Shown here piece by piece: positions 16,982 to 58,333 of a DNA stretch of 64,000 bases. Positions within the stretch are counted from its first letter, which is position 1; the number at the start of each line of letters is the position of its first letter. A program made the position numbers and the translations under genes. The notes under the pieces are model-generated. The model saw nothing but the letters and a program-made list of their open reading frames with translations. It had not been told where the DNA came from and did not search any database. The stretch spans positions 736,001 to 800,000 of the forward strand of contig CM000433.1 of NCBI GenBank assembly GCA_000165345.1. The letters run 5' to 3'.

Positions 16982-17054
16982 GCCCCCTTAGCTTAGTTGG
17001 TAGAGCATTCGCTTAGTAAGCGAAAGGTCCCGGGTTCGATTCCCGTAGGTGGCT
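16982..17054 (+). tRNA. tRNA-Thr(AGU): tRNA-Thr (anticodon AGU), 73 nt, no intron.
   Basis: Manual cloverleaf: acceptor GCCCCCT/AGGTGGC, D-arm GCTT-AGTTGGTA-GAGC, anticodon arm TTCGC-TTAGTAA-GCGAA (anticodon AGT at 34-36), variable loop AGGTC, T-arm CCGGG-TTCGATT-CCCGT with the GGTTCGATTCC T-loop consensus. Two C.U mismatches remain (4-69 and 49-65). Confidence 0.7.
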
Positions 17055-17108
17055 CTCTTTTTACTGCGCACAAAAAAACATTTTTATTTCATGTTATTGA
17101 ATATGAAG

Positions 17109-42437: not shown

Positions 42438-42722
42438 ATATTGAATAGTCTATAATTCCAGGTTGAATCTAGATTTTTTTTTCAAAATTGATTTTCTTTA
42501 ATTAATAATGGATTAATATACTAGTATTTAATATTATATAATAGTTTTTCCATCTTTTTGTTTTAAGTTATATTTCTATTTGATCTACCTTTCAAGAAAT
42601 CACATTTTCAATCGTTATCATGTAAAAAAAATAGCTATTAAGAAGCATTCGTAAATAATTTTTATAGTTTATGAAAGACAATATTTATTTATAATTTTGT
42701 GCTTGCAATAATTTACTGGAGA

Positions 42723-42757
42723 TTTGCATGCACCAAATGCATTTATTTGGCGGGAAC
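42723..42757. promoter_or_regulatory. TTTGCATGCACC ... TTTGGCGGGAAC pair in the intergenic region upstream of the Kazal glycoprotein gene. A second TTTTGCATGCAAATT lies at 43049-43063.
   Basis: tttgcatgcaccaaatgcatttatttggcgggaac. Confidence 0.4.
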
Positions 42758-43413
42758 ATCAATACAGTTACAAAAATTATTTTTTTCTGTAACTTCATTT
42801 ATCAATTTTTCAAATTCAGCAAAGTGTAAGCCAATAAATAAATTCAATAAAAAATGAACGACAGGGAAATATAGTTTCTGATTATATCTTATTTTAAATC
42901 GTACTCACACAATAAATGCAGCTCCAAAATCAAGGAAGGGGGGAGAGTGGGGGGTATACTGGAGGTAATTTAAAAAGGCCAGGTCTCTTTGCATAAATAA
43001 TAATCATAGATAACTGGATAAAAATTCTCCATTACACTTATGTTTTTTGTTTTGCATGCAAATTATTGTCACTTATACCCCACACCCTCTCAAACATAAC
43101 TTTAAAATTTAAACTTTATGTGCGCCAGGGTTGGCAAATATTATCGCGCGTCTTGTCTCCCCAATATATATATTATACAGGGGGTTGATCACAAGAATAA
43201 ACGAAAGAGGTTACACAGCGTTTATGTTAGAAGAACAGGACGTAAATGTAATAAATTTCGTGAAGTAGTTGCTTTGCAAGTTGTATTCCGATTATAGTAA
43301 GGGTAAATAGGTAAATTTGCTTTACAAAAGAATATATTAATAAGTGAGGACAAGCTAATATTTAGTGAGAAAAAAAAGCTCAATAAATAACTGAAGAATA
43401 TTTGAATTGAAGG

Positions 43414-45255
43414 ATGATAAAACTACTTATTTCTATTTTCTTAGTCACTCCAGGGCTGGTAGTTAAAGGGGAACAATTAATTAGGTGCGACTCAAGCCCA
43501 ATGAACCTTTGTGGTTCAGATTTAGTGATTTACAAATCTGAATGTGATTTTTTGGCTTCAAAGGCTAGGTTAAGCGACTTGACTATTCTTGATTTAACTG
43601 ATTGTGTTAATGGTAATTTTAGTGAGTTAAATGTTACAGAGAGTAGTTCAAACTTAGATAATAGGTCATTAAGAGGGAGCAGCATATCAAAGAAAGATTC
43701 AGATAAAACTTCTGAAAATGTAACTTTATCACTGAAAAATGATACAGAAATGAATTTACCTGATTTAATGGATGATAATAACGAAAATATAGTTAACAAT
43801 TATACATTTGTTAATGGTTCTACTTCAGATGGAAAACATCTACAAGACATATCACTGACAGATTCTATATACAATAGTGGAGATAATATATTAAATGCAT
43901 TTTACATGGGCAAACATAGTCCAATTTTTCAAAATATTAACAAGTATAATGTGAAAATGATTAATGTTATCGTAGAGAATTTTGATATTTCTACATTTAT
44001 TTTATCAAATGGTAAATATAATCTTTCAAGATTTTCAATGCTAGTCTTAGAGTCTGTTATTAAGATATTGAAAAACCAAAGGTCGAAGATAGATAATTAT
44101 TTGTCTCGATTAAAAAGTACAAAGTTAGAAAGCACGGATAGTGATAATGCAACATATCCTTATAAAGTTGTGGATAGAAGAAACGATTCAAGTATAATTG
44201 GCCAGGAAGAATACGATGGTTTGAACGTGACATTCAAGTTTTCCAACTCAAGCAATGCAAATAGTTTCTTAGATTCACAAATATTAACAGATTTAGCACT
44301 TAAATATTCAAGCAAGGTTAATGTTAGTAGTATTGATAATAACCATAAAAAAGCTATTAGTAATAGATTACTGGTTGCTTCAGAAAATGATTATGCTCCT
44401 ATTAAAGAAATTGACTCCAATTTAACCGATAGCCACTTTGTTGTTGATAATTGCGAAGTAAATATTCCACCTTATCAAGGAGCTCAGTTGGTTCCCAATT
44501 TCCATTGTATCTTCCCCCAAAACTCTACAGGTAATAATTTTGAAGTTGCTTGCAATAATATTCTTAGTTTGGCCCAAATAGCCATTATGAACACATTTGG
44601 AAATAATTCAAATTTAAATCTGATTCCATACAAAGTGTTAAATCCAATCATGAACGTAACTAGTTTATCAGAAGGTAATATCAGAATTTTGTCGAGCAAT
44701 CAATCTTGGGAGGGTGAAAGTCAGGAGAAATTTGTTCTGGATTTCTTTGATTTATTATTATCCCCATTGAATTTTACAAATGAGATAATGGACCTCGAAA
44801 TTGGTGAGATCTTTGTGAACTTTGATTTTAGTCTCTTATCTAATGGTGACTTTATTGACTCTTCGGTCTCAAATGTCAATGATACCACCAATTTGGAAGA
44901 AATAGATGAGATTTTTAAGTTAGACTCTATTTTAAAGGATTTAAATTTAATTCTGAAATCGAATAACACAGATAACTCTACGTTATCAGGTTCATTGAGA
45001 ATCACAAGTGAAACATTACCAAAAATGGACTCAAATTATACAACTGATGGCATATCTAGAGATTTCCCTCCTGCATTTGATAGGGTAAGAGGACCAGATT
45101 GCGTAGTTAAATGTGATGACAATATTGACTTACATTGTGCAAACAACGGAATAGCATACAAGAACCTTTGTGAATTCAGAAATGCTCAATGCGATGATCA
45201 AGGCTTAATTTTCGTTGGCTTTGGAAAATGTTTGCCTCTGGTTATTAAAACTTAA
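43414..45255 (+). CDS. Secreted glycoprotein with many N-glycosylation sequons, flanked by N- and C-terminal Kazal-like Cys modules. 613 aa.
   Basis: Signal peptide MIKLLISIFLVTPGLVVKG. The N-terminal module is CDSSPMNLCGSDLVIYKSECDFLASKA...C and the C-terminal module is CVVKCDDNIDLHCANNGIAYKNLCEFRNAQCDDQGLIFVGFGKC (Kazal-like spacing). More than 20 N-x-S/T sequons lie in between. Confidence 0.8.
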   Translation: MIKLLISIFLVTPGLVVKGEQLIRCDSSPMNLCGSDLVIYKSECDFLASKARLSDLTILDLTDCVNGNFSELNVTESSSNLDNRSLRGSSISKKDSDKTSENVTLSLKNDTEMNLPDLMDDNNENIVNNYTFVNGSTSDGKHLQDISLTDSIYNSGDNILNAFYMGKHSPIFQNINKYNVKMINVIVENFDISTFILSNGKYNLSRFSMLVLESVIKILKNQRSKIDNYLSRLKSTKLESTDSDNATYPYKVVDRRNDSSIIGQEEYDGLNVTFKFSNSSNANSFLDSQILTDLALKYSSKVNVSSIDNNHKKAISNRLLVASENDYAPIKEIDSNLTDSHFVVDNCEVNIPPYQGAQLVPNFHCIFPQNSTGNNFEVACNNILSLAQIAIMNTFGNNSNLNLIPYKVLNPIMNVTSLSEGNIRILSSNQSWEGESQEKFVLDFFDLLLSPLNFTNEIMDLEIGEIFVNFDFSLLSNGDFIDSSVSNVNDTTNLEEIDEIFKLDSILKDLNLILKSNNTDNSTLSGSLRITSETLPKMDSNYTTDGISRDFPPAFDRVRGPDCVVKCDDNIDLHCANNGIAYKNLCEFRNAQCDDQGLIFVGFGKCLPLVIKT

Positions 45256-45690: not shown

Positions 45691-48600
45691 ATGAGTTTAA
45701 ATCATACGGAAGTTTGTATTTTTTCACAAAAAGCTAATATAGTTTATATGAAGTTGCTAAAAGTAGCCCTGAAACCATCAATATTTATGTTAGATTTAGA
45801 TAAAGAAGATGATAGCGATGATTTTAAGGATTTCTTTTTGGAACTTTACTTCAAAAGACTCAATATTAACAAGAAAGGAGATTGTGAAGTAAACTTAACC
45901 CGGGATGTAAAAAATTCAATGATTCCTTCTTCGAAAATTTTTTATTTGATTTATAAAAAAAGCGATCCACATGATTTTTTTGCATGCAGCCATGCAGATA
46001 AAATAATTTCATTCAATACCGGCGTGTCCACATTACTAAGAAATGTGTGCAAATACATGCATTTGGTATTTGTTTTGGATTTAGGGTCATTACTATGGTT
46101 CTCAGAATTATTTGATGATATAGAACAGTTGGGGGTGTATTTAGATGAATTTTTGTTAAGTTTAGAAAATATATTAAATGGTGTTTCAAGATTATCTGAG
46201 TATTTAAAGTATCTACAAGAAGATGTAGAAGTGAGATTTTCCGTTTTTTTGTTTGGGTTGAATCAAGAGGAATCTTGTTTTAAACTGATATTTTATGAAA
46301 TTCCACTAATTTCTTGGATTTCTGAAACAGAACTTTTTATTGAAAACTTGCAAAAAGAGATTCAGCAAATATTAAAGACTCATTTGGAATTCAAGGAAGG
46401 TATACCAAACTTTCCAAGGAACTTGTGGAGTATTGAGATTCTTGCATTATTGAATTCGTTTTCATCTTCTTTCGTTCATTCACTAATTGTTATTACAACG
46501 GGAGTAATATCTTCCAGACTTTTTTCTAAAGAAAATTCTTCATCATTAGTTTGCAAGAATAGTTACTTATTACATCACTGTTATTCAAATGATATTCAAG
46601 TTCATTTTTTGGTTATTAACAAGTTTAATATAGACCTGGAAGAATCAGAAATTGGATTGAATCCTTCATTAGACACTTTGGAGTTTGTTGCAGCAACTTG
46701 TAATTCAACTTTAACAGTAACTGAGTTTGGAGTAAATGAACAAGATGCGAGGAAGATAGCTATTGATTTGTTACTCAGACCGGATATTTATAATATTCCT
46801 TCGGATATTGTATCAGAAGTTAAAAATGAATTTAATAATTTGACGGAGATTTATGGCTACAAAGTAAGTCAAAAATTATCTCTGATTGAGATTTTATTAA
46901 ATAAATTAAGAAACAGTTTTAATTTTGTTGGAGAAACAATAATTGAGGTTCCCTTAATTTTATATTCAAAATTTCACAAGCTGATTGAAATTATTTGCGT
47001 AATTGAGAATTATAAAGATATTCAAGATAATCATTGTTCAGGATTTTGGTACATCAAATTCTATATCAAAAATCTGGGGAATGTTATTTCTACTTCTGAT
47101 GAATTTTCTTTATTAAAAAAATTACTAGAGTCTAAAGAAGAGATTAAAAAGCCCAAGTCATTTAATAAACCTAATAGATTGACTTATTTTCTTTACTCTT
47201 TTATACTCAAAATCCGTCAATTGGATACTTGGATGGAGAATTTGGTTGAAAATTATTCAAAAACTAAAGACCCTCCAGCTTTTCCAAGTGGTTTGAATAG
47301 CTTATTTCTCCCAAGTATTATTCGGCATAAGATTGACTTAGTTTTGGAGAGCGATCAAAGTTTACTCAAGGAGGGAGTTTTTGATGGTTTTAAGGGTTCT
47401 TGGGAACTTTTACAAGATAAATTGGTAGAAATGGGATTTAAAGCTTTTATATTAGAAAATCAACAGTTTGAGTATGACTTTCCAATAATAGAAAAGGATA
47501 AAATCTTAATATATTATAATTTGTTTCCAAAGATGAATACTAGTGAAATCGAGTTCAAGTGTGAAGATCATGGAATCTTGAGAATTTTAAGATCCTGGGC
47601 AAAAACTGATTCTTTACTGGAAAATCTTAACTCAAATGGGTCTGAAAAAGCCAACAACTTTATGGCAATTTGGTTGGATGCCCAGAGAATCATTATTAAA
47701 ACACCTGATCATGAAAAAAGTAATAGTGAAGAAATAGAAAGCCAATCTTCATTAGTAATTTTTAATATCCTATATTATGGGTTTAGCCCAGAATATTGCC
47801 AGGAATATACAAAGTGGTTTAAAGAAAAAATTATTAAGTACGGAATTGATTCTGATGAGGCCGACTTAAGTCTTTTAAGATTTTCACTAGTAACAAATAA
47901 TTTCTATGAAAGCGTTATAAATGGAGAAAGATGTTTGGAAAAGTCATGGAGCTATGTGCTTTGGAGTGAAAAGGTAAATTATAGCTATCAAGAACAAGAA
48001 CCAATGGATTTGAATGGAAGAGTCATAATAAATATATCAAATTCTAGATATTTGGATGGGTGGATCTTGCTTAATAGAAGAAATGACAAATATCAATTAA
48101 GCTCAACCTGGTACAAAGTCCGTGATTTCCAAATCAGAAACAATTTCAAGTTAAAGGTAGTATTTATTTATGATCTTAAATTTCAATTTGGAAACAATAC
48201 AAATAGTAGTAGGCTAATATGCAGAATTTTAATGTCAAGTTCTATTGGAAAAACTGATATTATTAATGAAACCTATGGAGAATACTTTTCATTTAATAAA
48301 TTCGCAGAAAAAATTCATTTTCAAGACAATAAAATAATACAAACAATCTCATTAATAGATTATTTGTATACTTCAAGCCATTTAAGGAAGAATATTGTAT
48401 ACCTTAGAAATAATAATGATGAAGAGGTAAACGAAAAAAGTAAAGGAGAAAATAATTCTGAAATAAAGTCTGAAAGCTTTCATCAAAATCTATGCAAGAG
48501 TAAATTTGGAGCAGTAAACTCTAATTATTACAATATCATTTTTAGTGGCCTTACAAATTCGAAAGAATTTAATAAATACAAGAGAATAATCCAAAGTAAA

Positions 48601-51600
48601 TCATTTTATGGAAATGATAATAAAATTTCATTATCAATTCGAGAAATTTCAAATCTTTTTCTCACATTTAATAATAATGAAATTAAGTTAGATTCAGATG
48701 ATAAAGATACATTCAAGCTAGTTTTACCATTTAATTTAGGAAACGGCAACTATAAAGATGCTGAACAGGAATTGGATAAAGAATTTATCAATAAATTTAA
48801 ACCTTTCTGTTTTATAGAGATACCTCTAATTAACGCAGGAAATTTATTTACTTCTCAGCTTAATTCCAATAGTAGAAAGAAGAATTCTGACATTGAAGCA
48901 AGAAGAAAGTATTTGGAGGGCGCATCAGAAAGTTCATTTGAGAAGTTTCTTTATAAGATGTCAAAGATCACAGATAGATCCGTTAGAGTAGATGAAAATG
49001 AGTGGTATACAATATTGTTTATAGATGAAAGTGACTTAGATGGAAAGTTTGAGGACGAGGAAAGTTTGACAATTAATGAAGATTTAAAACCTATTCCTGG
49101 TGATAAAAAAGAAGAAATGAACAATGAAAATTCAATAAGAAAGTTATATACTAATCAGATCTATGATTATATGATAATTACTCATATTAGGCTTCACAGG
49201 TCTAGCTATAATGTACCAACAAGTTCAGTATTAGGAGTTTATCTATGCTCATATTATAATATTAGCTATGGAATAACTGGGAAAAAGAACAATATTGAAT
49301 TAGGAATTAACGAAAAAAATAAGCTTAATAAGGTAAGACAATTCGTGGAATTATATATTTTAAGAGTAAAAGAAATTTGGGATTCTATTAAATTTAATAT
49401 GATTTCCCAATACTATCTATTAGGGATACCAATTTGTTCTAAAGATATTGCAAGGATACAAAATGAAAATGAATTCAATGAAGAGAAGACTCAACCACCT
49501 TCTTCCATTGGCGGATTAAATAAGAGTTTAATAGAAGATCCCATATCAGTTCGTGGAATTGACCTTGATTTAGATCCAGAATTTGACTTCATTAAAGAAG
49601 ATAATACACATCAAGAGAATTTTCAAAGCTTATTATATGGATTAAGCTCTAATCAGGAACATCTTTCAGAAAAGGGAACATATTCTGATCCAGATACTTG
49701 CTCAGATATAGCTTTTGATGCAAATGAATATAATGAAGTTAGAAGAGAAGTTTGTAAGTATCTTAAATGCAATATATTCAGATTTAAGCTTAGCCTTTCA
49801 AGCTTTAAAATAGTTTTATCTCGAAAATTTACAAAAAATGTGGAATTGGACAAAGGTTTGGATGAATTGGATGAATTAGCAAATTTTATTGGAGAAGAAC
49901 TTGAAAGTCGTATGAAAAATGCATTGAGAGTGAAATTGGTTCATTTTGATTGTCAAGATTTAAATTGTTTTTTAGTTTTCTGTGGAGTACTTGATTTGTG
50001 TAAAGGGAGTACTAAGAATATTTTAGTAACTGTTTCATTAATGAAAAACGAGCAAAATTTAGGAATTTCTTACCTTGAACTAGCCAAATTTTGGACAAGA
50101 TTTAAGAATACAAGTTTTAACCCTACCTGGTTTCACTGCTTGGTTTGGAAGAGTTTAACAGAAAGAGACAATTTAGAACTTAAAGTGACTGTATTCACAT
50201 CCATTGATAAGAAGTACATTAGAGTCAACAGAATAAATACTGAGCTTTGGTCAATTATTAAGTTAGAAAAAGAAGTCTTCGTTTCAAAATTAAGAAGTGT
50301 AATTTCATCTTGGATGACTGATATGACCATGGAGCTTTCTTTCATACATGGAAATGAAATTTCTGGGGATATTAATGATGAATCATATAGAATGAGTCTT
50401 TTTGCTTGCTTTGGAAGAGATTTATTATTGGAATGTTTACAAGGAGTTAAAGAGAAAATTTGGAATGATGGGGATGAGATATTTTCAGGAGAGTCATTTG
50501 AGAAAGGCGAACTCGTATCTTCTGGATCACTCATTTTTAGAAGAGACATTCAGCTTCCTTTGATCAAACCTACTACTAAATTTGAAAATTATATTGCAGT
50601 AATTAATTTACTTTCATCTCAAGCTGATTATATTCCAATCAAAAGAAAACCACAATTAGTCTTAATATGGCATGGATCTAAGTTTCCAACTGAGAGTTTA
50701 TCAATCAGAAATCCAAGCTTAAAATGCAAGCTCAGAAGAGGCCTTATTAACAGGTTAATTGAGCATACTAGAGTACTTGCTGAGATCTCTAACCCTGATG
50801 AATTGATAAGTAATGAATTGGTACTTAAACTTGCTTTAAAGATTTATTTCCCATCTTCAATTATTACTGGAATGAGTATTGCTTCACAAAATAAATTTAG
50901 ATGCAGATTATGTGATTTTTATATAGATCTAAATGGCTTACGTGAATCTATTAATTTCCTTTTTTCAGCAATGCAAAGCAGATTCATTAGTATTTGGAAG
51001 GAAGCAACATGTGATTTCTTATTACAAAATGTCACTATTTCAAAGATGGTTAGTTATCTGATGGTACCTAAATTTGTTTCATCTGATTATTCAAGCTTGA
51101 GATTAGAAATTGATAAAAGAAAACCAGAAATCTCAATTTTAGATTCAAATGATCAAGAAGAAATTTTTGGACAAATTTCAATTACGTCAGAATGGCTATA
51201 CGAAGTTCCTTTTGAAATTTCTCCAGCAAGATTTAGAAGAATGAAAAAAAATAGTCTTAATAATTTGCTTAAAAGAAAGTTGGATCCTGATTATTACGAA
51301 AATCCTGGAGAAGTAATTCTATGGGATGGTAGAATTGTTAAAGTACCTAATTATATATTTTGGTTAAAAAAACATGAGGAAGTGTTTATTGAAATTCCAT
51401 CTGAACTTTATGATGCTCCATTAATTGATATTTTGTTTGGAGGAGGAAACTTGGATATTTCAAGTATTGATAAATATAGCAAAGAACTATCTTCAATTGA
51501 AAAAAATTTATTCGGAAATTCTGATTTTGGAAAGGAGCTTAATAAAGCTTCTGAGCTTCGATTTTCGAAAGAAATAGAATTTATTTCATTAATATATCCA

Positions 51601-54600
51601 AAAGGATGGTTATTATACTCTGAAGATGCAACTACTTCAACCAATACACTTGGAACTGGATCAATATTTCTAATTAAACCAGATTATCTTTTTATTGATA
51701 TTAAAAACAAGGATTTGAAATTACAAAGAAAAAGAAGAAAAGATTTTATTAATCAAAATGAGTCATACCAAAGTTATTCTGTAGAACTTTCTCTTTCAAA
51801 TTTAAATGTTACAAAACCTAAATCCAAAATTGGGATTTCTCTTTCTTTCTTTGGAAAAAGAAAGCCTTCAAAGAGTACAAAATTATACTTTTATAGAGAA
51901 TTAAAGTTTACATTGCAGAGATTAATTTCTAATTGGAACAATAACCTCAACACTATAGTTCTTTCTAAAACAGTTCGTGAGAGACAAGTTGGAGAAATAT
52001 ATTGGAACTCAAAGAATGAATTAAACAGTGATAGTAATCAAAAGGTGGAGATGCCTTGTCATCTAACTTTAATCTTGAAATTAAGCAAAGTATACCATAA
52101 TTTTGTTGTTGCTTCAGTTTGGAATATGGTTAAACATAGTAATATTATTTTAAAAAGTGGGGATTTGTTTGCAATACTGGCAAGTATATTAACATATTAC
52201 AATATCAAATATAAAGAAATTGATAGAGGAATTCGTATTTTTACTAAAAGTATTGATATTGATTCAAAATCTGAGGAATTTGAATATCAAATTGATATAT
52301 CAGTATTTTCAGGAATTAATGGTAGGATCTTAGATATTTCGGATCCATGGGCTGCAGGAAATAAGCTTGGTCAAGATCCCTATTTAAATTTAGAAAAATA
52401 TATTAATGACTGTCTACTTCCAGTTTTTGAAGATGAAATACAACAGTCTACAAATCCATATTGGGACTTTAATACAGTCTTTGAATTTGTATTCTTTAAT
52501 AAAAATAATCAGTTTGATAATATTAATAATTGTAATATAAATGAAACCATTTCTTGGAATCTAATAAGAGATTCAAATGGTAAATTAATACAGATACAAA
52601 GAAACTTACCAATACACATCATTCCAGAAAATAACTCAAATGAAACAAAAAAGCAAAAATCTCCTCACTCATTTATCCAAACAAGTTCTCGGTACGAATC
52701 TGATAATATGGAATTACCAATATATTTAATGCCATGTATTTATTTGGGAGCAGATGTATTCTATAAAGGAAAACTAATCTATTTGGATGAGAGACTAGAA
52801 ACTAATGAAATGACTAAGCATAAAGCAAATGGTGTAAGTTTGTTTATTAATTCACTTTTGAATTTAATGTTTATGGAACTATTGATTAAGCTAAAGCTTG
52901 CAACTAACGATAATTGGGTTCTAAAAGATAACTTACAGTTTTCCAAGAAAGAATCGAATATTCAAACAAATGATAATTTAGATGATTGTTCATTAATTGT
53001 TAGTAATAGTTATGCTGAAGCTCATGGAGTAACTATTAGAGATATACATAAATATAGAGATAATATCCAAAACTTTTTTCAGGCAATAATTAATAATAGA
53101 AATAATATTGAAAGATTCTTACCTTTAAAGCCAGCACCTAAACATAACACAATCTTAGAAATTTATCCAATACCAAGTTTAATTCTACAAGATATTAATG
53201 GAGAAAAAGATGAGACTCAAATTTATTTTCCTTCTTGGAGTGTAGCTGAATTTATTAAAACATTAAGAGATGAAATTATGCTCATTCAAAATAATAAAAC
53301 TAACTTATCAGAAAAAAGGAATATAAAGACTGTCATTTCTGGATATACTTGCATAATTCATGATAATAAAGAAATTGATATAGAAGAAAAGGTACTGAAA
53401 AAAGAAGATGGAATTTCATTATCTAATAATTCTTCAATTCATATCAAATTTCCTATTAGAGGAAGCCAATCATTTAAAAATGCTGATGTTGGAGAATGTG
53501 GATGGCATGTTTTGAAATATAAATCTCAAATAAAATACTTGAATTATTTATGTAATCAAACAGATTTGAACATTAACAATTGGGTGGATTCATTATATGT
53601 AATGAATAATATCTCTCCTAATATTAATAATTCGATTGGGAACAAAAATGATTTAGACTTTAACGAAATTTATGGTTCATTTTTTAATATTTCTGGTGGA
53701 AAAGAAAGACCATGTATAATAGTAAATATTCATTCAGGTAATGAAACTGAAATTGAATGTTTGATCATTCTTGAGCTTACTCCTAGTGGAATATTGATTG
53801 CATGTTGGAATGCTCCTGTTTTAATTATAAGCAGGCTTCAGAAAATGATTAAGGGATTTGTATTTGAAAGTTGTATCAAAATAATTTGGTCATTACAGTT
53901 ATCAATTTGGTACAAATATAATGTCATTTATAGAAAGCACATTTTTGTATTGGATTTGTCAAAATTTCATTTAGATTTTAAGCAAGATTCCAGTATTAAT
54001 AATAATGAATCATCAGGGTTTTCTATGATTAATAATAACTATTATCCGAGAATATGTGAGATTACCACAGATATTATTTCATATATTTGGAAGAATCAAT
54101 ATTTCAATACAAATTTGAAATGGAGTCATACTGAAGATTTGTATAAAAAGGAGCTTATGATTGAATGCAAAATTAATAGATTAAAGTTGGAGGATGTTGT
54201 AATTCCAAATATTATAATGGGAAAGATATTAGATTTGAAATTTGAAGACTTATTTGATAGAAATAATAATAAGGAATTTAATTGGTTCATTCCTTCTATC
54301 ATTAACAAAATAAGAATTTTAAATTCTGATAATTTAATGAAAAGGTGGAATAATTACTTCTTTAAATATAAATTATGGTTATTTGTTAATCAATTTTTGA
54401 TTGAATGTTTTGCAATTAAAAGTTTAAGACAAGAAATTTCTACAAAAATATTTTCAAAGAATATAATTCTTCAAGTTAGTAAAAGTAATATGATCTTTAA
54501 ATATCAACAGATTATTAATTTCTTAAAGAAGAGAGTTGAGACTTATAATATTGATTATTCAAAATATTATAAAACTTATAAAATTAATTGTCAAGAGAAA

Positions 54601-56820
54601 GAAGATAGTTTATTAAGTGATGAAAATATTATTCAAACTCATTATAACTTATTAACTTATCTTCAAAATTCTCATAATATTATTAATACATTAATTTCAG
54701 CAACAGCTCAAAATCAAGATAATCATTTCATATTAATTCATCCAAATAAAATGACTGAAGAATTTATTAAGAATCGAAATAAAACTGATAATAATGATAA
54801 AGAAAAACAATTAAATGATGAAAATATTAGTAGTTGTGAATTTTGTATGGTAAATCCAAAAGATATTTCTATCAGAATAATATTAACCACTTTATTCAGA
54901 TGTTCAATTGATGTTTTGGATCGATTATATAATGAAAAAAAAGCTGAGTCAAATTTAAATGATGATGAATATAGTTTTAAAGGATTGGAATCTTTTGATT
55001 TAGATTCTAATAATTACAAATATGAAGAACAATATATTCAAAATGAACAAAAGAATTCAATTCTATATAATGAACAAGAAGAGAATTTCAACACCAAAAA
55101 AATAGTGATAGAGAAATTAAAATGTTTTGATAATAAAGGTGAGTTATTGATCTTTATTGAAGATATATCTGGGATCCCATTTCAAAATTTTTCTTCTGAT
55201 CTTGAGAATATGTATATAATTAAGGATTTAACTATAAAATTGGATGAATTATTTAAAGAAAATGGATTTATTCGAGTTACAAATTCTTATAGTGAAATTA
55301 TTAATAAAGAATACTTATATAAAAATAATTATTGTATTTCAGTAATTAGTAGTATATTTAGTGGGTTAAATATACATGAAAGAATTGAAATGAAGAATTT
55401 AAGTTATTTAATGGAAACAGAAATTGGTTCTGAGAGAGAAATCATTATATATATAAAAACAATACATATCAAGAAATATAACTTTTCAATACCTATATGT
55501 ATTTTTTTAAGTTTGTATAAATGTAAAATAAAGATAATATATTTATCAAGTATTTTCAATGATGGTACATTATATATAAATCAAAGTATTCTAGAGTTTA
55601 TTGAAATGCTTAATATTAAAAAGTTGATTTTTGAATATATATTATCATATACTGGATCTTTAATTTGGAATATTTGGAATCAAAAAAATATTATTTTGAA
55701 TTTAGAAAACCTTCAATATTTGGAAAATAGGGTTTCTGATTTAAGATTATCATCTGATCAGTTAATTGAATTGACATTATGGTTAAATAAATTTTCACAA
55801 AATTATCCAAATATTATTAAAGATTCAAATTTGATGATATTTAAGATATGGTTCTCTAGAAATCTTAAAATAAATAATAATCAGTTAATTTCAATACAAA
55901 ATAGCTTTAACCATTATATTGAATCAGAAAAGTTAAGTTATAGAATAAAAATCTTACCAAATTCAAGTAATAAAGTACTTATATTATTCCAATCATTAGT
56001 TAGAAATGAATTAATTGGATTAATCATAGATTATTTTAAATTTGATGAAATAATAACAAATGAAGAATTACCAATGGATTGTTTTATTATAAAAAGTAAA
56101 CCAGAATTGAAAGAATGTCGCCATGAATCAAAATTTTCTGATCAAGAAAAGGTTAGATGGGAAATAACCAATACACTAAGTTCTATACAAGAATATATAA
56201 AAAGAAATCAATTGGTAAAAAAAATCCAAGTATATGGAATAACTTTTTCACAAAAGTTTATTGATGATTTGGCAAATAATCAATTTTCAATTAATATATC
56301 TTTAAATAATCAATTATTAAAACAATTACCAATTATAAAGATTCAAAATTTATTATTTAAAAATGATATTAAAATGATAATTTTTAAACCAATGTTGAAA
56401 ATTCAAGAAAATATAAATGTAATAATATCATTATTTAGACGATTTTGGATGAAGAATGATGCAATTCGATTCTTTAATTCTTTATATATAATAAAAGATT
56501 CCGAAATTTTTGATGAATCTTTACAAGATAGGATTATTTCTGTGGTAATTAAACATAAAAGAAGAGAGTTAATTTTGATAAGATTTTTCACAACTTTTAA
56601 AGTTGATAAAAGTAATGATATGGAATGGATTTTTAATGAAATAAAGTTTACTTTTAAAGATGAAGATAAAATTAAAAGATATTTCTTAATTAATAATAAA
56701 GATGATAATAATATTGAATTAGGGTATCAGAAAAATAATAAAATAATAAAAGAAGAATTATTTGAATTAATATTAAAATCAATAGAATTTATTTTGGATA
56801 ATAATAATACAAGCAAATAA
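45691..56820 (+). CDS. Giant uncharacterised protein, 3709 aa, single uninterrupted 11.1-kb ORF.
   Basis: A continuous ORF with coding-like composition throughout. No signal peptide, no P-loop, no Zn-finger, no recognisable catalytic motif found by eye. The C-terminal third is I/N/K-rich. Confidence 0.85.
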   Translation: MSLNHTEVCIFSQKANIVYMKLLKVALKPSIFMLDLDKEDDSDDFKDFFLELYFKRLNINKKGDCEVNLTRDVKNSMIPSSKIFYLIYKKSDPHDFFACSHADKIISFNTGVSTLLRNVCKYMHLVFVLDLGSLLWFSELFDDIEQLGVYLDEFLLSLENILNGVSRLSEYLKYLQEDVEVRFSVFLFGLNQEESCFKLIFYEIPLISWISETELFIENLQKEIQQILKTHLEFKEGIPNFPRNLWSIEILALLNSFSSSFVHSLIVITTGVISSRLFSKENSSSLVCKNSYLLHHCYSNDIQVHFLVINKFNIDLEESEIGLNPSLDTLEFVAATCNSTLTVTEFGVNEQDARKIAIDLLLRPDIYNIPSDIVSEVKNEFNNLTEIYGYKVSQKLSLIEILLNKLRNSFNFVGETIIEVPLILYSKFHKLIEIICVIENYKDIQDNHCSGFWYIKFYIKNLGNVISTSDEFSLLKKLLESKEEIKKPKSFNKPNRLTYFLYSFILKIRQLDTWMENLVENYSKTKDPPAFPSGLNSLFLPSIIRHKIDLVLESDQSLLKEGVFDGFKGSWELLQDKLVEMGFKAFILENQQFEYDFPIIEKDKILIYYNLFPKMNTSEIEFKCEDHGILRILRSWAKTDSLLENLNSNGSEKANNFMAIWLDAQRIIIKTPDHEKSNSEEIESQSSLVIFNILYYGFSPEYCQEYTKWFKEKIIKYGIDSDEADLSLLRFSLVTNNFYESVINGERCLEKSWSYVLWSEKVNYSYQEQEPMDLNGRVIINISNSRYLDGWILLNRRNDKYQLSSTWYKVRDFQIRNNFKLKVVFIYDLKFQFGNNTNSSRLICRILMSSSIGKTDIINETYGEYFSFNKFAEKIHFQDNKIIQTISLIDYLYTSSHLRKNIVYLRNNNDEEVNEKSKGENNSEIKSESFHQNLCKSKFGAVNSNYYNIIFSGLTNSKEFNKYKRIIQSKSFYGNDNKISLSIREISNLFLTFNNNEIKLDSDDKDTFKLVLPFNLGNGNYKDAEQELDKEFINKFKPFCFIEIPLINAGNLFTSQLNSNSRKKNSDIEARRKYLEGASESSFEKFLYKMSKITDRSVRVDENEWYTILFIDESDLDGKFEDEESLTINEDLKPIPGDKKEEMNNENSIRKLYTNQIYDYMIITHIRLHRSSYNVPTSSVLGVYLCSYYNISYGITGKKNNIELGINEKNKLNKVRQFVELYILRVKEIWDSIKFNMISQYYLLGIPICSKDIARIQNENEFNEEKTQPPSSIGGLNKSLIEDPISVRGIDLDLDPEFDFIKEDNTHQENFQSLLYGLSSNQEHLSEKGTYSDPDTCSDIAFDANEYNEVRREVCKYLKCNIFRFKLSLSSFKIVLSRKFTKNVELDKGLDELDELANFIGEELESRMKNALRVKLVHFDCQDLNCFLVFCGVLDLCKGSTKNILVTVSLMKNEQNLGISYLELAKFWTRFKNTSFNPTWFHCLVWKSLTERDNLELKVTVFTSIDKKYIRVNRINTELWSIIKLEKEVFVSKLRSVISSWMTDMTMELSFIHGNEISGDINDESYRMSLFACFGRDLLLECLQGVKEKIWNDGDEIFSGESFEKGELVSSGSLIFRRDIQLPLIKPTTKFENYIAVINLLSSQADYIPIKRKPQLVLIWHGSKFPTESLSIRNPSLKCKLRRGLINRLIEHTRVLAEISNPDELISNELVLKLALKIYFPSSIITGMSIASQNKFRCRLCDFYIDLNGLRESINFLFSAMQSRFISIWKEATCDFLLQNVTISKMVSYLMVPKFVSSDYSSLRLEIDKRKPEISILDSNDQEEIFGQISITSEWLYEVPFEISPARFRRMKKNSLNNLLKRKLDPDYYENPGEVILWDGRIVKVPNYIFWLKKHEEVFIEIPSELYDAPLIDILFGGGNLDISSIDKYSKELSSIEKNLFGNSDFGKELNKASELRFSKEIEFISLIYPKGWLLYSEDATTSTNTLGTGSIFLIKPDYLFIDIKNKDLKLQRKRRKDFINQNESYQSYSVELSLSNLNVTKPKSKIGISLSFFGKRKPSKSTKLYFYRELKFTLQRLISNWNNNLNTIVLSKTVRERQVGEIYWNSKNELNSDSNQKVEMPCHLTLILKLSKVYHNFVVASVWNMVKHSNIILKSGDLFAILASILTYYNIKYKEIDRGIRIFTKSIDIDSKSEEFEYQIDISVFSGINGRILDISDPWAAGNKLGQDPYLNLEKYINDCLLPVFEDEIQQSTNPYWDFNTVFEFVFFNKNNQFDNINNCNINETISWNLIRDSNGKLIQIQRNLPIHIIPENNSNETKKQKSPHSFIQTSSRYESDNMELPIYLMPCIYLGADVFYKGKLIYLDERLETNEMTKHKANGVSLFINSLLNLMFMELLIKLKLATNDNWVLKDNLQFSKKESNIQTNDNLDDCSLIVSNSYAEAHGVTIRDIHKYRDNIQNFFQAIINNRNNIERFLPLKPAPKHNTILEIYPIPSLILQDINGEKDETQIYFPSWSVAEFIKTLRDEIMLIQNNKTNLSEKRNIKTVISGYTCIIHDNKEIDIEEKVLKKEDGISLSNNSSIHIKFPIRGSQSFKNADVGECGWHVLKYKSQIKYLNYLCNQTDLNINNWVDSLYVMNNISPNINNSIGNKNDLDFNEIYGSFFNISGGKERPCIIVNIHSGNETEIECLIILELTPSGILIACWNAPVLIISRLQKMIKGFVFESCIKIIWSLQLSIWYKYNVIYRKHIFVLDLSKFHLDFKQDSSINNNESSGFSMINNNYYPRICEITTDIISYIWKNQYFNTNLKWSHTEDLYKKELMIECKINRLKLEDVVIPNIIMGKILDLKFEDLFDRNNNKEFNWFIPSIINKIRILNSDNLMKRWNNYFFKYKLWLFVNQFLIECFAIKSLRQEISTKIFSKNIILQVSKSNMIFKYQQIINFLKKRVETYNIDYSKYYKTYKINCQEKEDSLLSDENIIQTHYNLLTYLQNSHNIINTLISATAQNQDNHFILIHPNKMTEEFIKNRNKTDNNDKEKQLNDENISSCEFCMVNPKDISIRIILTTLFRCSIDVLDRLYNEKKAESNLNDDEYSFKGLESFDLDSNNYKYEEQYIQNEQKNSILYNEQEENFNTKKIVIEKLKCFDNKGELLIFIEDISGIPFQNFSSDLENMYIIKDLTIKLDELFKENGFIRVTNSYSEIINKEYLYKNNYCISVISSIFSGLNIHERIEMKNLSYLMETEIGSEREIIIYIKTIHIKKYNFSIPICIFLSLYKCKIKIIYLSSIFNDGTLYINQSILEFIEMLNIKKLIFEYILSYTGSLIWNIWNQKNIILNLENLQYLENRVSDLRLSSDQLIELTLWLNKFSQNYPNIIKDSNLMIFKIWFSRNLKINNNQLISIQNSFNHYIESEKLSYRIKILPNSSNKVLILFQSLVRNELIGLIIDYFKFDEIITNEELPMDCFIIKSKPELKECRHESKFSDQEKVRWEITNTLSSIQEYIKRNQLVKKIQVYGITFSQKFIDDLANNQFSINISLNNQLLKQLPIIKIQNLLFKNDIKMIIFKPMLKIQENINVIISLFRRFWMKNDAIRFFNSLYIIKDSEIFDESLQDRIISVVIKHKRRELILIRFFTTFKVDKSNDMEWIFNEIKFTFKDEDKIKRYFLINNKDDNNIELGYQKNNKIIKEELFELILKSIEFILDNNNTSK

Positions 56821-56855: not shown

Positions 56856-58333
56856 TTAATAAAAAGGATTAAAATTGAAATATTTATGGATAATTTCTTT
56901 AATACCTTCAAGATCAATTTGTTGTATTTGTTTAAGCTTATCATCAATACTGGTATAATGGTTATTGACTATTAAATCTCTACCAATTTCCTCAAATAAT
57001 GTTCCAGAATTTTCATATAATGAAGTTAATTGATATGAAAGAATTCTCTTAACTCTAATAATATCGTCTTCAGTAATTAATGAATGTAGGTTTTTAAATC
57101 GAGAGCTAATTAATTTGGCATTTTCCATAATAGCTTTGTGACTAAGATCACTATTGCTTTTAAGGTACCATCCAAATAAGCCTAATAATGAATTAAAAAA
57201 GAAAACTAAGAATAGGAATGAAGATATAACTTACCTGTATCTTTATAACAAGTATTAAAAGTTTCAAAGAATTCAACATGGTCTTTAATACCAGAAAGAA
57301 TCCTTTCAATAATTTGGTTTTTATATCCAGTTACTCTATTAATATTATTGGTTCCATATTCCCCTAGCATACTTTGGAGAAACATAACTTTAAGAAAATC
57401 TTTGGAATTCCAAGATGTACCATTGTATGCCATAGCAAGAAGAGTCTTTCCATCACTATTGTTTTTTTTGTGTACTAATACAGGATGATTTTTATCAGAG
57501 TTAATTTCGTTCAAATATTGAGAATTGGATAAATTAATATTTTTATATCCCTTTAAACCAAGTAGATTTCTGGAGTTATTTGAATCATTTCCAAAATAAG
57601 TTTCAGCAATATTCTTAAAAGAATTATGGTCAATATTACCAACTCCTAAAATCATCATTTTCTCTGGAATATAATTAGTACGTATATAATTGATCAAATC
57701 TTCTCTTTTGAATCCAAGAATATTTTCTTTTGGACCAAGAATAGTATTTCCAAGTGGATGATTCTTATACATTTCTTTATGTAAATCATCAAAAATAATC
57801 TCTTCTTCAGATTTGCTTACTTCTTCCATTTCTCTTAAGACAACTCCTTTTTCTTGTTCAATAGCAGATTTACAAAATTTGGAGTTTTTAATAATATCAC
57901 TCAAAAGATCCATGCACTTTGGTAGGTCTTGATTAAAGCATCTGATTTGATAAACCGTTTGTTCGCGAGTAGTATATGCATTCAAATGGGCACCTAAGTC
58001 TTCAATTTGGCTTTCAATTTCTTTTCTAGATCTATTGTATGTACCTTTAAATATGAGATGTTCCAAAAAATGAGCAATCCCATTTTTTCCTGGGTCTTCA
58101 TTTCTACTTCCAGAATCTACCCATAATCCAAAAGTTAGAGAATTAGGGATACTGTCAATTCCAAACTTCATGGTTGCAACTCTCATCCCATTTGAGAGTT
58201 TGGAGATCTTTAAATCTGGATCATTTCTTTTAAAACTCAGAGTGCTGTTAAATCTTGCATATCTAGTAGGCAATACTCGTAACAAATTTGAACATCCAAG
58301 TTTTAGTATGGAGTTTTTTAAAATTAAGCTCAT
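56856..58333 (-). CDS. M16 (insulinase-family) metallopeptidase, mitochondrial-processing-peptidase beta-like, in two exons: 58333..57235 and 57181..56856. The intron is 53 nt. N-terminal presequence-like segment.
   Basis: Inverted zinc-binding motif HFLEHLIFKGT with downstream E residues (EIESQIEDLGAHLNAYTTRE). The donor ACAG|GTAAGT (intron starts 57234) and acceptor CATTATTAG (ends 57182) join ...CYKDTG to LFGWYLKSNSDLSHKAIMENAKLISS... in frame. The N-terminus is MSLILKNSILKLGCSNLLRVLPTRYARFNSTLSF. Confidence 0.85.

Follow-up and report, generated by a model that had tools for sequence, protein, structure and literature searches.

Growth at the surface of the gut epithelium exposes Cryptosporidium to digestive proteases, and the protection and building of that interface are poorly understood. 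A 64,000-nucleotide stretch of Cryptosporidium parvum chromosome 5 analyzed here (the window) carries a single frame at 43414..45255 (forward strand, as are all features of the protein given below) whose product has a Kazal-type module at each end. What kind of protein is this, and would its Kazal-type ends be expected to inhibit proteases?

Gene identity, secretion signal, and stage of expression

The frame runs from ATG to TAA, and both protein identity and primer mapping establish it as cgd5_3380, a complete intronless gene encoding 613 amino acid residues followed by a TAA stop. Specifically, i) the product is 100% identical to C. parvum EAK88032.1/QOY41861.1; ii) the published cgd5_3380 qPCR primers map inside the frame at 43490-43510 (+) and 43663-43683 (-); and iii) the neighboring genes match cgd5_3390, cgd5_3400, and cgd5_3410. 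A chance open reading frame is ruled out by conservation, synteny, a dN/dS below 1, and transcription. The gene is already annotated, the signal peptide and Kazal domain are both known from public annotation, and cgd5_3380 is not a new kind of molecule. We found no biochemical, localization, or glycoproteomic data on cgd5_3380 in the literature, and it is absent from the supplements of two recent secretome and proteome papers.

A secretory product was predicted at the outset, and the N-terminus agrees: by hydropathy and the -3/-1 rule, residues 1-19 (MIKLLISIFLVTPGLVVKG; 43414..43470) form a signal peptide with a single Lys in the n-region, a hydrophobic core of 8-9 residues (Kyte-Doolittle ~2.2-2.6), and V-K-G at -3/-1 of a predicted cleavage site before E20, with G19 and E20 unchanged across all nine aligned orthologs. 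A hydropathy scan of the protein revealed no second hydrophobic stretch, no transmembrane segment, and no GPI-type tail, and a GPI- or transmembrane-anchored surface antigen is ruled out by the absence of a hydrophobic tail. The further suggestion that the protein is a surface antigen is not borne out, since a membrane anchor is absent and oocyst and sporozoite transcripts are near zero.

Published expression data place the gene in intracellular stages. Extracellular samples reach an FPKM of at most 1.3, compared with 22-215 for most intracellular ones (log2 ratio -7.5), transcripts being almost absent from oocysts and sporozoites; the qRT-PCR signal is zero at 2 h, peaks twice (6 h and 36 h), and falls by 72 h; and log2 CPM values stand at 6.7 for asexual stages, 7.75 for in-vitro females, and 5.2 for in-vivo females, so that sorted in-vitro females lie about 2-fold above asexual stages and in-vivo females 6-fold below in-vitro females. 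This profile argues against an oocyst-wall protein. It should be emphasized that transcript timing is no proof of the final location of the protein.

The two Kazal-type ends

The C-terminal module (aa 563-606, 45100..45231) is a non-classical 6-Cys Kazal domain (C1-x3-C2, C4-x6-C5) whose spacing is exactly that originally predicted, C563-x3-C567-x7-C575-x6-Y582-x3-C586-x6-C593-x12-C606, and its six Cys are invariant across 11 orthologs. With Pfam Kazal_2 it scores 25.9 bits (gathering cut-off 22.8), and its profile matches agrin (2.2e-20), follistatin (5e-9), ovomucoid (3.6e-7), and the Anemonia elastase inhibitor (1.3e-6) in the PDB. An AF2 model of moderate confidence (pLDDT 74; strands 24-26 and 50-53, helix 35-44) retrieves only Kazal or follistatin-type structures among its top 50 Foldseek matches in the PDB, and superimposes on OMTKY3 at 0.9-1.1 A rmsd over 42 columns. 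The module thus has the Cys pattern of the Kazal family (Pfam PF00050/PF07648, MEROPS I1), C-x(n)-C-x7-C-x6-Y-x3-C-x(2-6)-C-x(n)-C, scores above the curated profile threshold, and is predicted to adopt the Kazal fold, which consists of a short beta-hairpin, one alpha-helix, and a third strand. Immediately upstream lies a leader, FPPAFDRVRG (aa 551-560, 45064..45093), which ortholog alignment, conservation profile, and paralog comparison identify as the best-conserved 10 residues of the protein and as a feature common to all units in the multi-Kazal paralogs of Cryptosporidium; in the AF2 model, residues 1-8 of this 10-residue leader have pLDDT <50.

The N-terminal module (aa 25-64, 43486..43605) reads C25-x7-C33-G-S-D-x3-Y40-x3-C44-x19-C64, and is identified as Kazal-type by Pfam Kazal_1, PDB profile matches, and HHalign. 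Its four Cys correspond to C2, C3, C4, and C6; the C5 position is Ala or Lys, a C1 is impossible because just 5 residues separate the signal peptide from C25, and the C1-C5 disulfide is absent, leaving the six-Cys pattern incomplete. The C. parvum sequence alone scores 19.3 bits with Kazal_1, just under the cut-off of 21, and all nine orthologs match both Kazal families (best E-values 1.3e-9, for Kazal_1 on the N-terminal module, and 2e-8); the module profile matches agrin (1.4e-10) and ovomucoid (1.7e-5) in the PDB; and HHalign aligns the two modules of cgd5_3380 with 91.8% probability, C2, C3, C4, and C6 in register. We take the N-terminal module to be a Kazal-derived 4-Cys variant, with Ser27 as the probable P1; decay of the module in C. 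andersoni has left only two Cys. The original prediction of Kazal modules at both ends therefore stands as regards profile, Kazal_2 being above threshold in the C-terminal module and Kazal_1 being matched in 9/9 orthologs; a complete set of six Cys, however, is found at the C-terminal end only.

The closest relatives of the C-terminal module are Cryptosporidium multi-Kazal secreted paralogs such as C. felis KAF7456930.1 (9-11 Kazal units) and C. andersoni OII76041.1. These share with it a genus-specific extended unit, leader included (G-P-F-D-R-V-R-G-P-D-C...E-F-R-N-A-Q-C-D-D...G-x-C), and resemble cgd5_3380 in having a signal peptide and in lacking disulfides in some units; they differ in that their units follow one another in tandem, joined by linkers that are short or rich in Thr, and carry canonical loops with Arg, Lys, or Met at P1, whereas cgd5_3380 has a single C-terminal unit with an acidic loop, a distinct 4-Cys N-terminal module, and ~500 unrelated, sequon-rich residues in between. 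TgPI-1 of Toxoplasma gondii, which resides in dense granules and carries four non-classical Kazal domains (PMC12147184), is likewise a secreted protein of a gut-acquired apicomplexan with short C1-C2 spacing. The domains of TgPI-1, however, lie in tandem with short spacers, its reactive sites are directed at trypsin and at chymotrypsin/elastase, and its activity is proven; in cgd5_3380, the two modules are separated by 498 non-Kazal residues, the loops are atypical, N-glycosylation is predicted to be heavy, and no sequence relationship between the two was found outside the Kazal domain.

The spacing C-x3-C-x7-C-x6-Y-x3-C-x6-C recurs in the Anemonia sulcata elastase inhibitor (PDB 1y1b), infestin, rhodniin, and dipetalin, and the Anemonia protein and other non-classical inhibitors are direct profile and fold matches of the C-terminal module; these inhibitors are small and free with a hydrophobic or basic P1, whereas the module caps the C-terminus of a 613-residue glycoprotein and its P1 residue is Asp. 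Agrin and follistatin, which gave the best of the PDB profile matches above, belong with the Kazal-like domains of follistatin, agrin, and the SPARC family, which share with the module both C4-x6-C5 and a C-E-x-R-x-A-x-C helix motif, and which are mainly binding or structural modules of large extracellular glycoproteins. Animal FS domains are preceded by a Cys-rich FOLN/EGF-like subdomain, whereas FPPAFDRVRG is free of Cys and no Cys occurs between C380 and C563; the likeness implies no common ancestry beyond the Kazal fold.

Would the C-terminal module inhibit a protease in the canonical manner? The putative reactive-site loop, C567-D-D-N-I-D-L-H-C575 (45112..45138), was placed by register with OMTKY3 and by comparison with ortholog and paralog loops; Cys16 of OMTKY3 corresponds to C567 and Leu18 to Asp569, making Asp569 the P1 residue and P2/P1 Asp/Asp. 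C. parvum and most orthologs have Asp/Glu at P2/P1, Asn/Gln/His at P1', and Ile/Val at P2' (consensus for intestinal species, C-[DEGN]-[DE]-x-[IV]-D-[LY]-H-C), and P1 is acidic in 10 of 12 orthologs; P1 is Lys in the C. felis ortholog, and C. andersoni has a near-canonical loop, C-T-S-E-F-D-P-H-C. The ten orthologs from intestinal species that have a standard 7-residue loop all keep D572 and H574, and C. andersoni also keeps H574, while the 8-residue loop of C. xiaoi has neither. Against a Laskowski-type consensus (P3 Cys, P2 Thr/Pro, P1 specificity residue, P1' Glu/Asp, P2' Tyr/Phe, and Pro before C3), the C. parvum loop fits only at P3 Cys, whereas the C. andersoni ortholog conforms, as do the 6-Cys paralog units with their C-T-R-E-Y, C-P-K-F-Y, C-S-K-Y-Y, or C-T-M-E-F loops (canonical form C-T-R-E-Y-x-P-I-C).

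Of 544 related non-classical Kazal units used for comparison, 61% have Thr or Pro at P2 and 49% have Tyr at P2'; Asp or Glu occupies P1 in 19%, and we therefore dropped the idea that an acidic P1 is exceptional. Acidic P2 and acidic P1 occur together in 9/544 (1.7%), and only this combination and the non-aromatic P2' appear unusual in the cgd5_3380 loop. In the OMTKY3 P1 variant series, an acidic P1 binds trypsin-, chymotrypsin-, and elastase-type enzymes very weakly. The Foldseek matches nonetheless include OMTKY3 Asp18 and Glu18 variants in canonical complexes with serine protease (PDB 1sgd and 1sge), and an acidic P1 is not rare, so some protease inhibition could still occur. Judged by their residues, the Kazal loops of cgd5_3380 do not look like those of classic gut-protease inhibitors, and protease inhibition by its Kazal modules is only an analogy.

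A fast-evolving, sequon-rich middle

Between the modules lies a genus-specific middle region (aa 65-550, 43606..45063) which has no match in Pfam or PDB sequence searches. The more than 20 sequons originally claimed are confirmed by count: there are 23 N-x-S/T (x not P), all within aa 68-541, compared with 11.9 +/- 3.0 in composition-preserving shuffles (~2x; p ~4e-4), and the N-x-T class is ~4x in excess (14 observed, 3.5 expected). The sequon excess is present in 12/12 orthologs, and N203, N271, N370, and N453 are invariant. No other large open reading frame in the window has a comparable sequon excess or any N-x-T excess; the nearest are frames of 2093 residues (39 sequons, 27.6 expected; ratio 1.4, p ~0.009) and 221 residues (6 sequons, 2.6 expected; p ~0.03), neither with N-x-T excess, and the conserved sites of cgd5_3380 are among the densest sets in the window. 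The N-x-T bias agrees with the Thr-site bias that the title of Haserick et al. 2017 mentions (as cited in PMC5549699); that study, a C. parvum N-glycoproteome (MCP), took in 16 oocyst proteins according to a review. With predicted ER entry and N-x-S/T sequons, cgd5_3380 has the features expected of a secretory N-glycoprotein, and its sequons probably carry glycans. Cryptosporidium mucin-like glycoproteins are defined by long consecutive Ser/Thr runs carrying O-GalNAc (PMC5549699); the longest Ser/Thr run in cgd5_3380 is 3 residues, and a mucin-like O-glycoprotein of the gp40/15, gp900, or gp20 type is ruled out.

The middle had been pictured as a simple stalk, a description at odds with its several conserved hydrophobic blocks (about aa 171-220, 271-280, 361-370, 441-470, and 491-500) and with a conserved Cys pair, C347...C365 (44452..44508), that occupies invariant alignment columns; C380 is not conserved. 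Within a variable stretch, alignment, conservation profile, and comparison with paralog leaders also identify a conserved LDNRSLRG motif (aa 81-88, 43654..43677), in which R84, L86, R87, and G88 are invariant and which resembles the FDRVRG leader of the Kazal units. AF2 on the full-length alignment of nine orthologs gave a mean pLDDT of 29.

The unusual architecture noted at the outset appears confined to one genus: when 1.84 billion representative proteins were searched, Cryptosporidium alone yielded full-length relatives (among the best 150 of 216 matches), and in those same 150 HMMER matches no protein from outside Cryptosporidium had its best match outside the Kazal positions. There are 12 full-length orthologs, all from Cryptosporidium (nine used for the full-length alignment and Pfam runs, 12 for the sequon and loop comparisons), with synteny extending out to C. 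andersoni; gene order is the same in C. andersoni and C. meleagridis. Purifying selection acts strongly on both Kazal ends and the middle is fast-evolving, with dN/dS 0.06 for the N-terminal module, 0.20 for the C-terminal segment (aa 549-613), and 0.58 for the middle, compared with 0.07-0.20 for neighboring genes.

Candidate roles

We propose that cgd5_3380 is made by intracellular stages (trophozoite/meront and female) rather than stored in sporozoites; that the signal peptide would direct it into the ER, where ~20-25 N-x-T-biased sequons would receive the simple high-mannose N-glycans of the parasite, forming a coat over a fast-evolving, genus-specific core; that each end would be capped by a disulfide-knotted Kazal module kept nearly constant by selection; and that this soluble glycoprotein, specific to Cryptosporidium, would pass into the parasitophorous vacuole, or into the interface between parasite, host, and lumen, and act there as a scaffold shielded by glycans and resistant to proteases. 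The Kazal knots, chiefly the acidic-loop C-terminal module, would then serve as stable binding or narrow-specificity modules and not as a broad trypsin/chymotrypsin/elastase inhibitor of the TgPI-1 type. Taken as a whole, we give this explanation an even chance of being right. "Scaffold" is the default reading because AF2 failed to give a model of the middle, and conservation of the loop within the intestinal clade, a point against binding modules, also fits a specific protease target.

Might cgd5_3380 instead be a true canonical Kazal inhibitor, analogous to TgPI-1 and directed against host gut or neutrophil serine proteases, the middle being a spacer for two inhibitory heads? The strong conservation of two Kazal-type ends, the protease-rich habitat of the parasite, the coccidian-type short C1-C2 spacing described for TgPI-1 (PMC12147184), a C-terminal framework nearly identical to that of paralog units with P1 Arg, Lys, or Met, and the Lys and near-canonical loops of the C. 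felis and C. andersoni orthologs would all fit. But the residues from P2 to P2' depart from the usual Thr/Pro, specificity residue, Glu, and Tyr; the N-terminal module has Ser at P1, lacks the C1-C5 disulfide, and is decayed in C. andersoni; the parasite's own multi-Kazal proteins already supply canonical loops; and the very weak binding of acidic P1 residues noted above counts against it as well. We consider such an inhibitor unlikely, but worth keeping in view. Quite unlikely in our judgment is an inhibitor of narrow specificity for a protease that cuts after acidic residues, be it host granzyme B, a Glu-specific gut bacterial protease, or a parasite subtilisin-like maturase: the prevalence of acidic P1 residues among orthologs, the invariance of D572 and H574 in standard-loop intestinal orthologs, purifying selection on the C-terminal domain, and the canonical binding of Asp18 and Glu18 ovomucoid variants to serine protease speak for it, but acidic P1 residues are common in related Kazal units of unknown function, so that no special target is required, and the host cytosol is no place for a disulfide-bonded, N-glycosylated protein. 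In a more elaborate and still more speculative form, which we regard as a long shot, the conserved acidic loop (P2-P1 Asp-Asp or Glu-Glu, P3' Asp) would make the C-terminal module an inhibitor or decoy for intestinal-lymphocyte granzyme B or a Glu-specific microbial protease, held at the parasite-host interface by the N-glycan-coated core; if so, this would be the first apicomplexan Kazal protein with a target beyond trypsin-, chymotrypsin-, and elastase-type enzymes.

It is improbable, too, that the protein is a precursor cut at R-S-L-R|G (aa 84-88) and R-V-R|G (aa 557-560) to free the Kazal modules from a glycoprotein core. Both motifs are (near-)invariant and lie in or beside variable sequence, FDRVRG precedes every multi-Kazal paralog unit, RSLR fits a minimal R-x-x-R site, and furin-type processing of gp40/15 is known in Cryptosporidium (PMC5549699); but DRVR|G has no Arg at P4, C. 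andersoni has SHLRG in place of the first motif, and the leader may be a mere structural part of the Kazal domain. An oocyst-wall or other sexual-stage structural glycoprotein would be in keeping with Cys-rich modules, many N-glycan sites, and the 2-fold rise of transcripts in sorted in-vitro females, yet it is very improbable given good expression in sorted asexual stages, the 6-fold lower level in in-vivo females, qRT-PCR peaks at 6 h and 36 h with a drop by 72 h, and almost no transcripts in oocysts.

Whether as the glycan-shielded secreted scaffold we favor or in another role, cgd5_3380, with its genus-wide conservation, expression while the parasite lies in its vacuole, and two presumably protease-resistant knots, makes a sensible target for tagging and knockout, and would be well suited to probing the role of N-glycans in a parasite whose glycan repertoire is very simple.

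The 976-bp intergenic region 5′ of the gene (42438..43413) contains TGCATGCA at 42725 and 43053, and GGCGGGAA at 42749.

Gene identity, secretion, and relatives

The window is AT-rich (G+C about 30%) and rich in long intronless ORFs. The 613-residue product of cgd5_3380 (ORF 43414..45255, forward strand) matches C. parvum Iowa II EAK88032.1 and IOWA-ATCC QOY41861.1 (on CP044418.1, about 1.017 Mb along the 1.086-Mb chromosome) at 100% identity, and the cgd5_3380 qRT-PCR primers of Mauzy et al. 2012 can be placed exactly at 43490-43510 (+) and 43663-43683 (-). EAK88032.1 is publicly labeled 'protein with signal peptide and possible kazal domain'; because existing records name both features, the core of the original prediction was already in public annotation.

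The signal peptide is well borne out: the N-terminus, MIKLLISIFLVTPGLVVKG|EQ, has an n/h/c layout with V and G at -3/-1 in a rule-based call, and both G19 and E20 are invariant among nine aligned orthologs. Hydropathy revealed neither a second hydrophobic segment nor a GPI-type tail.

A word-indexed search returned nine proteins, all from Cryptosporidium (38-100% identity). Three more, 633 aa long in C. felis, 572 aa in C. xiaoi, and 355 aa in C. andersoni, came from an exhaustive HMMER scan covering 1.84 billion representatives; among the best 150 of 216 hits, the best match of each non-Cryptosporidium protein is confined to Kazal positions. C. andersoni and C. meleagridis share the gene order cyclophilin, adenylate kinase, ~1000-aa protein, Kazal protein, ~3700-3900-aa protein, so that by position the gene is orthologous in both the gastric and the intestinal branch of the genus; in the gastric branch the ortholog is shorter, and its N-terminal module has only 2 Cys. 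Between C. parvum and C. meleagridis, dN/dS (Nei-Gojobori) is 0.49 for the whole gene, 0.06 for the N-terminal module, 0.58 for the middle, 0.20 for the C-terminal segment (aa 549-613), and 0.07-0.20 for three neighboring genes; the few intraspecific differences seen also fall in the middle.

Two Kazal-type modules and a sequon-rich middle

The C-terminal module passes as a Kazal domain on every line of evidence: i) its spacing, C563-x3-C567-x7-C575-x6-Y582-x3-C586-x6-C593-x12-C606, is exactly as originally described, and with 25.9 bits the module clears the Pfam Kazal_2 cut-off of 22.8; ii) a profile of 11 orthologs matches the solved structures of agrin (2.2e-20), follistatin (5e-9), ovomucoid (3.6e-7), and the non-classical Anemonia elastase inhibitor (1.3e-6); and iii) the AlphaFold2 model (pLDDT 74 overall, about 85 in the core) fits the turkey ovomucoid third domain with an rmsd of about 1.0 A across 42 columns, and the best 50 Foldseek matches in the PDB are all Kazal or follistatin-type.

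The N-terminal module, C25-x7-C33-G-S-D-x3-Y40-x3-C44-x19-C64, had also been called Kazal-like, and here the profile likeness stood but the module has only four Cys, and the C. parvum sequence alone scores 19.3 with Pfam Kazal_1, just below the threshold of 21. Nonetheless, nine of nine orthologs match both Kazal families (best E 1.3e-9), the module profile picks out agrin at 1.4e-10 and ovomucoid at 1.7e-5, and HHalign pairs the two modules with 91.8% probability, with C2, C3, C4, and C6 in register and an equal C4-C6 distance. Judged by these alignments, the module is a Kazal-derived 4-Cys variant predicted to lack the C1-C5 disulfide. In multi-Kazal paralogs of C. felis (P0012) and C. andersoni (P0015), full 6-Cys units with canonical loops alternate with units of a second form, which have Phe/Tyr and Ser in place of C2 and C4 and therefore no C2-C4 disulfide. 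Loss of a single disulfide seems to be a recurrent theme of Cryptosporidium Kazal domains.

Between the modules, the claim of more than 20 N-x-S/T sequons held up on counting: all 23 lie within aa 68-541, against 11.9 +/- 3.0 expected by shuffling (p about 4e-4), and N-x-T accounts for 14 (3.5 expected) despite Ser being 2.4 times commoner than Thr. No comparable excess was found in 16 other large ORFs of the window; the nearest are the 2093-aa ORF at 24832-31113 (-), with a mild excess of 39 sequons over 27.6 expected (p about 0.009), and an ORF with 6 over 2.6 (p about 0.03), and N-x-T is in excess in neither. Each of the 12 orthologs has between 16 and 29 sequons, or 1.7-2.6 times what shuffling predicts, and each is enriched in N-x-T; N203, N271, N370, and N453 are invariant in nine aligned orthologs, several others come close to invariance, and the remainder turn over. 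The middle also has conserved hydrophobic blocks (about aa 171-220, 271-280, 361-370, 441-470, and 491-500) and a conserved Cys pair (C347, C365). Pfam and PDB sequence searches found no matching family or solved structure, and AlphaFold2 gave no usable model from nine sequences (pLDDT 29).

We conclude that cgd5_3380 is a real, expressed, genus-wide gene whose soluble secretory product bears two Kazal-type knots and an excess of sequons that is conserved and biased toward N-x-T.

Reactive-site loops, expression, and alternative readings

The closest sequence relatives are Cryptosporidium multi-Kazal proteins, and TgPI-1 is the closest characterized analogue; among structures, the nearest belong to non-classical Kazal inhibitors and to the Kazal-like domains of follistatin and agrin. 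Together with its leader FPPAFDRVRG and its helix motif C-E-F-R-N-A-Q-C-D-D, the C-terminal module closely copies the repeat units of multi-Kazal secreted proteins in C. felis (9-11 units) and C. andersoni, whose 6-Cys units bear textbook loops (C-T-R-E-Y-x-P-I-C, C-P-K-F-Y-D-P-I-C, C-S-K-Y-Y-N-P-I-C, C-T-M-E-F-N-P-I-C); the C. andersoni ortholog itself retains a near-canonical C-T-S-E-F-D-P-H-C. A canonical TgPI-1-like inhibitor would suit this framework, but the register of the turkey ovomucoid third domain (Cys16 = C567, Leu18 = position 569) makes the C. parvum loop C-D-D-N-I-D-L-H-C, and therefore P1 Asp. Of 12 orthologs, eight have Asp and two have Glu at P1, while C. felis has Lys there and C. 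andersoni has Ser; in the N-terminal module P1 is Ser in most species. Acidic and small polar P1 residues make ovomucoid variants weak binders of trypsin-, chymotrypsin-, and elastase-type enzymes. We therefore regard canonical inhibition as rather unlikely, even though the Asp18 and Glu18 variants still form canonical complexes (entries 1sgd, 1sge). Inhibition of an acid-specific protease would accommodate the acidic P1, yet we surveyed 544 Kazal units from 146 related proteins and had to drop the idea that such a residue is exceptional: because 19% of units have Asp or Glu there, acidic P1 alone is not rare, and we consider this alternative quite improbable. Acidic residues at both P2 and P1 occur in 1.7% of units; P2 is Thr or Pro in 61%, and P2′ is Tyr in 49%.

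In Matos et al. 2019, cgd5_3380 FPKM is <=1.3 in every oocyst and sporozoite sample and 22-215 in most intracellular samples (log2 extracellular/intracellular -7.5); in Mauzy et al. 2012, the transcript is undetectable at 2 h, peaks at 6 h, dips at 12 h, peaks again at 36 h, and is down by 72 h; and in the sorted cells of Tandel et al. 2019, log2 CPM is 6.70 for asexual stages, 7.75 for in-vitro females, and 5.19 for in-vivo females. Growing intracellular stages therefore transcribe the gene. Neither the invasive nor the environmental stage stores its mRNA, and it lacks the strongly female-specific expression of wall-protein-type genes, so that an oocyst-wall protein, for all its expression in females, is very improbable. 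With moderate confidence we favor a protein whose sequons would be glycan-occupied, which would be delivered to the vacuole or host interface, and whose Kazal modules, rather than inhibiting broadly, may be stable binding modules or modules of narrow specificity. The parasite has N-glycosylation machinery, and Thr sites are reportedly preferred by its oligosaccharyltransferase. A processed precursor, compatible with the other readings, is doubtful: a conserved L-D-x-R-S-L-R-G (43654-43677, aa 81-88), within an otherwise variable stretch, echoes the F-D-R-V-R-G leader of the C-terminal module (45064-45093, aa 551-560), which precedes every unit of the Cryptosporidium multi-Kazal paralogs. This motif may be a processing site, since RSLR conforms to R-x-x-R, or what is left of a lost Kazal unit.

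The layout is in three parts: a 4-Cys Kazal, a genus-specific sequon-rich core of ~500 aa, and a 6-Cys Kazal. The protein does not qualify as a tandem multi-Kazal inhibitor, a follistatin/agrin FS domain, or a mucin. No description of this layout was found in the literature that could be searched; the Kazal annotation pre-exists, and no part of the protein is new in kind.

Genomic surroundings

Upstream, the long (976 bp) intergenic region 42438-43413 contains two copies of the palindrome TGCATGCA (42725, 43053) and a putative E2F-like box, GGCGGGAA, at 42749. Downstream, in keeping with the cgd5_3380 assignment, lie cgd5_3390 (45691-56820, +), a 'very large hypothetical protein' (3709-aa intronless ORF) which C. 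meleagridis and C. andersoni likewise keep beside the Kazal gene and for which contig look-ups gave no precomputed Pfam domain; cgd5_3400 or INS-23 (57206-58333, -), a small, 375-aa M16 protease that is one of C. parvum's divergent insulinase-like proteases; and cgd5_3410, a triose-phosphate-transporter family protein of 495 aa. The sole Rfam/ARAGORN match within the window is a tRNA-Thr (AGT) at 16982-17055 (+). The ORF at 61242-64000 (+), with a G+C of 0.36-0.42 vs about 0.30, extends past the window end and encodes a secreted product with a Notch/LNR-like Cys motif and many thrombospondin type-1 repeats (W-S-x-W-S ... C-S-x-T-C-G); judged by position, it is probably the TSP-family adhesin cgd5_3420.
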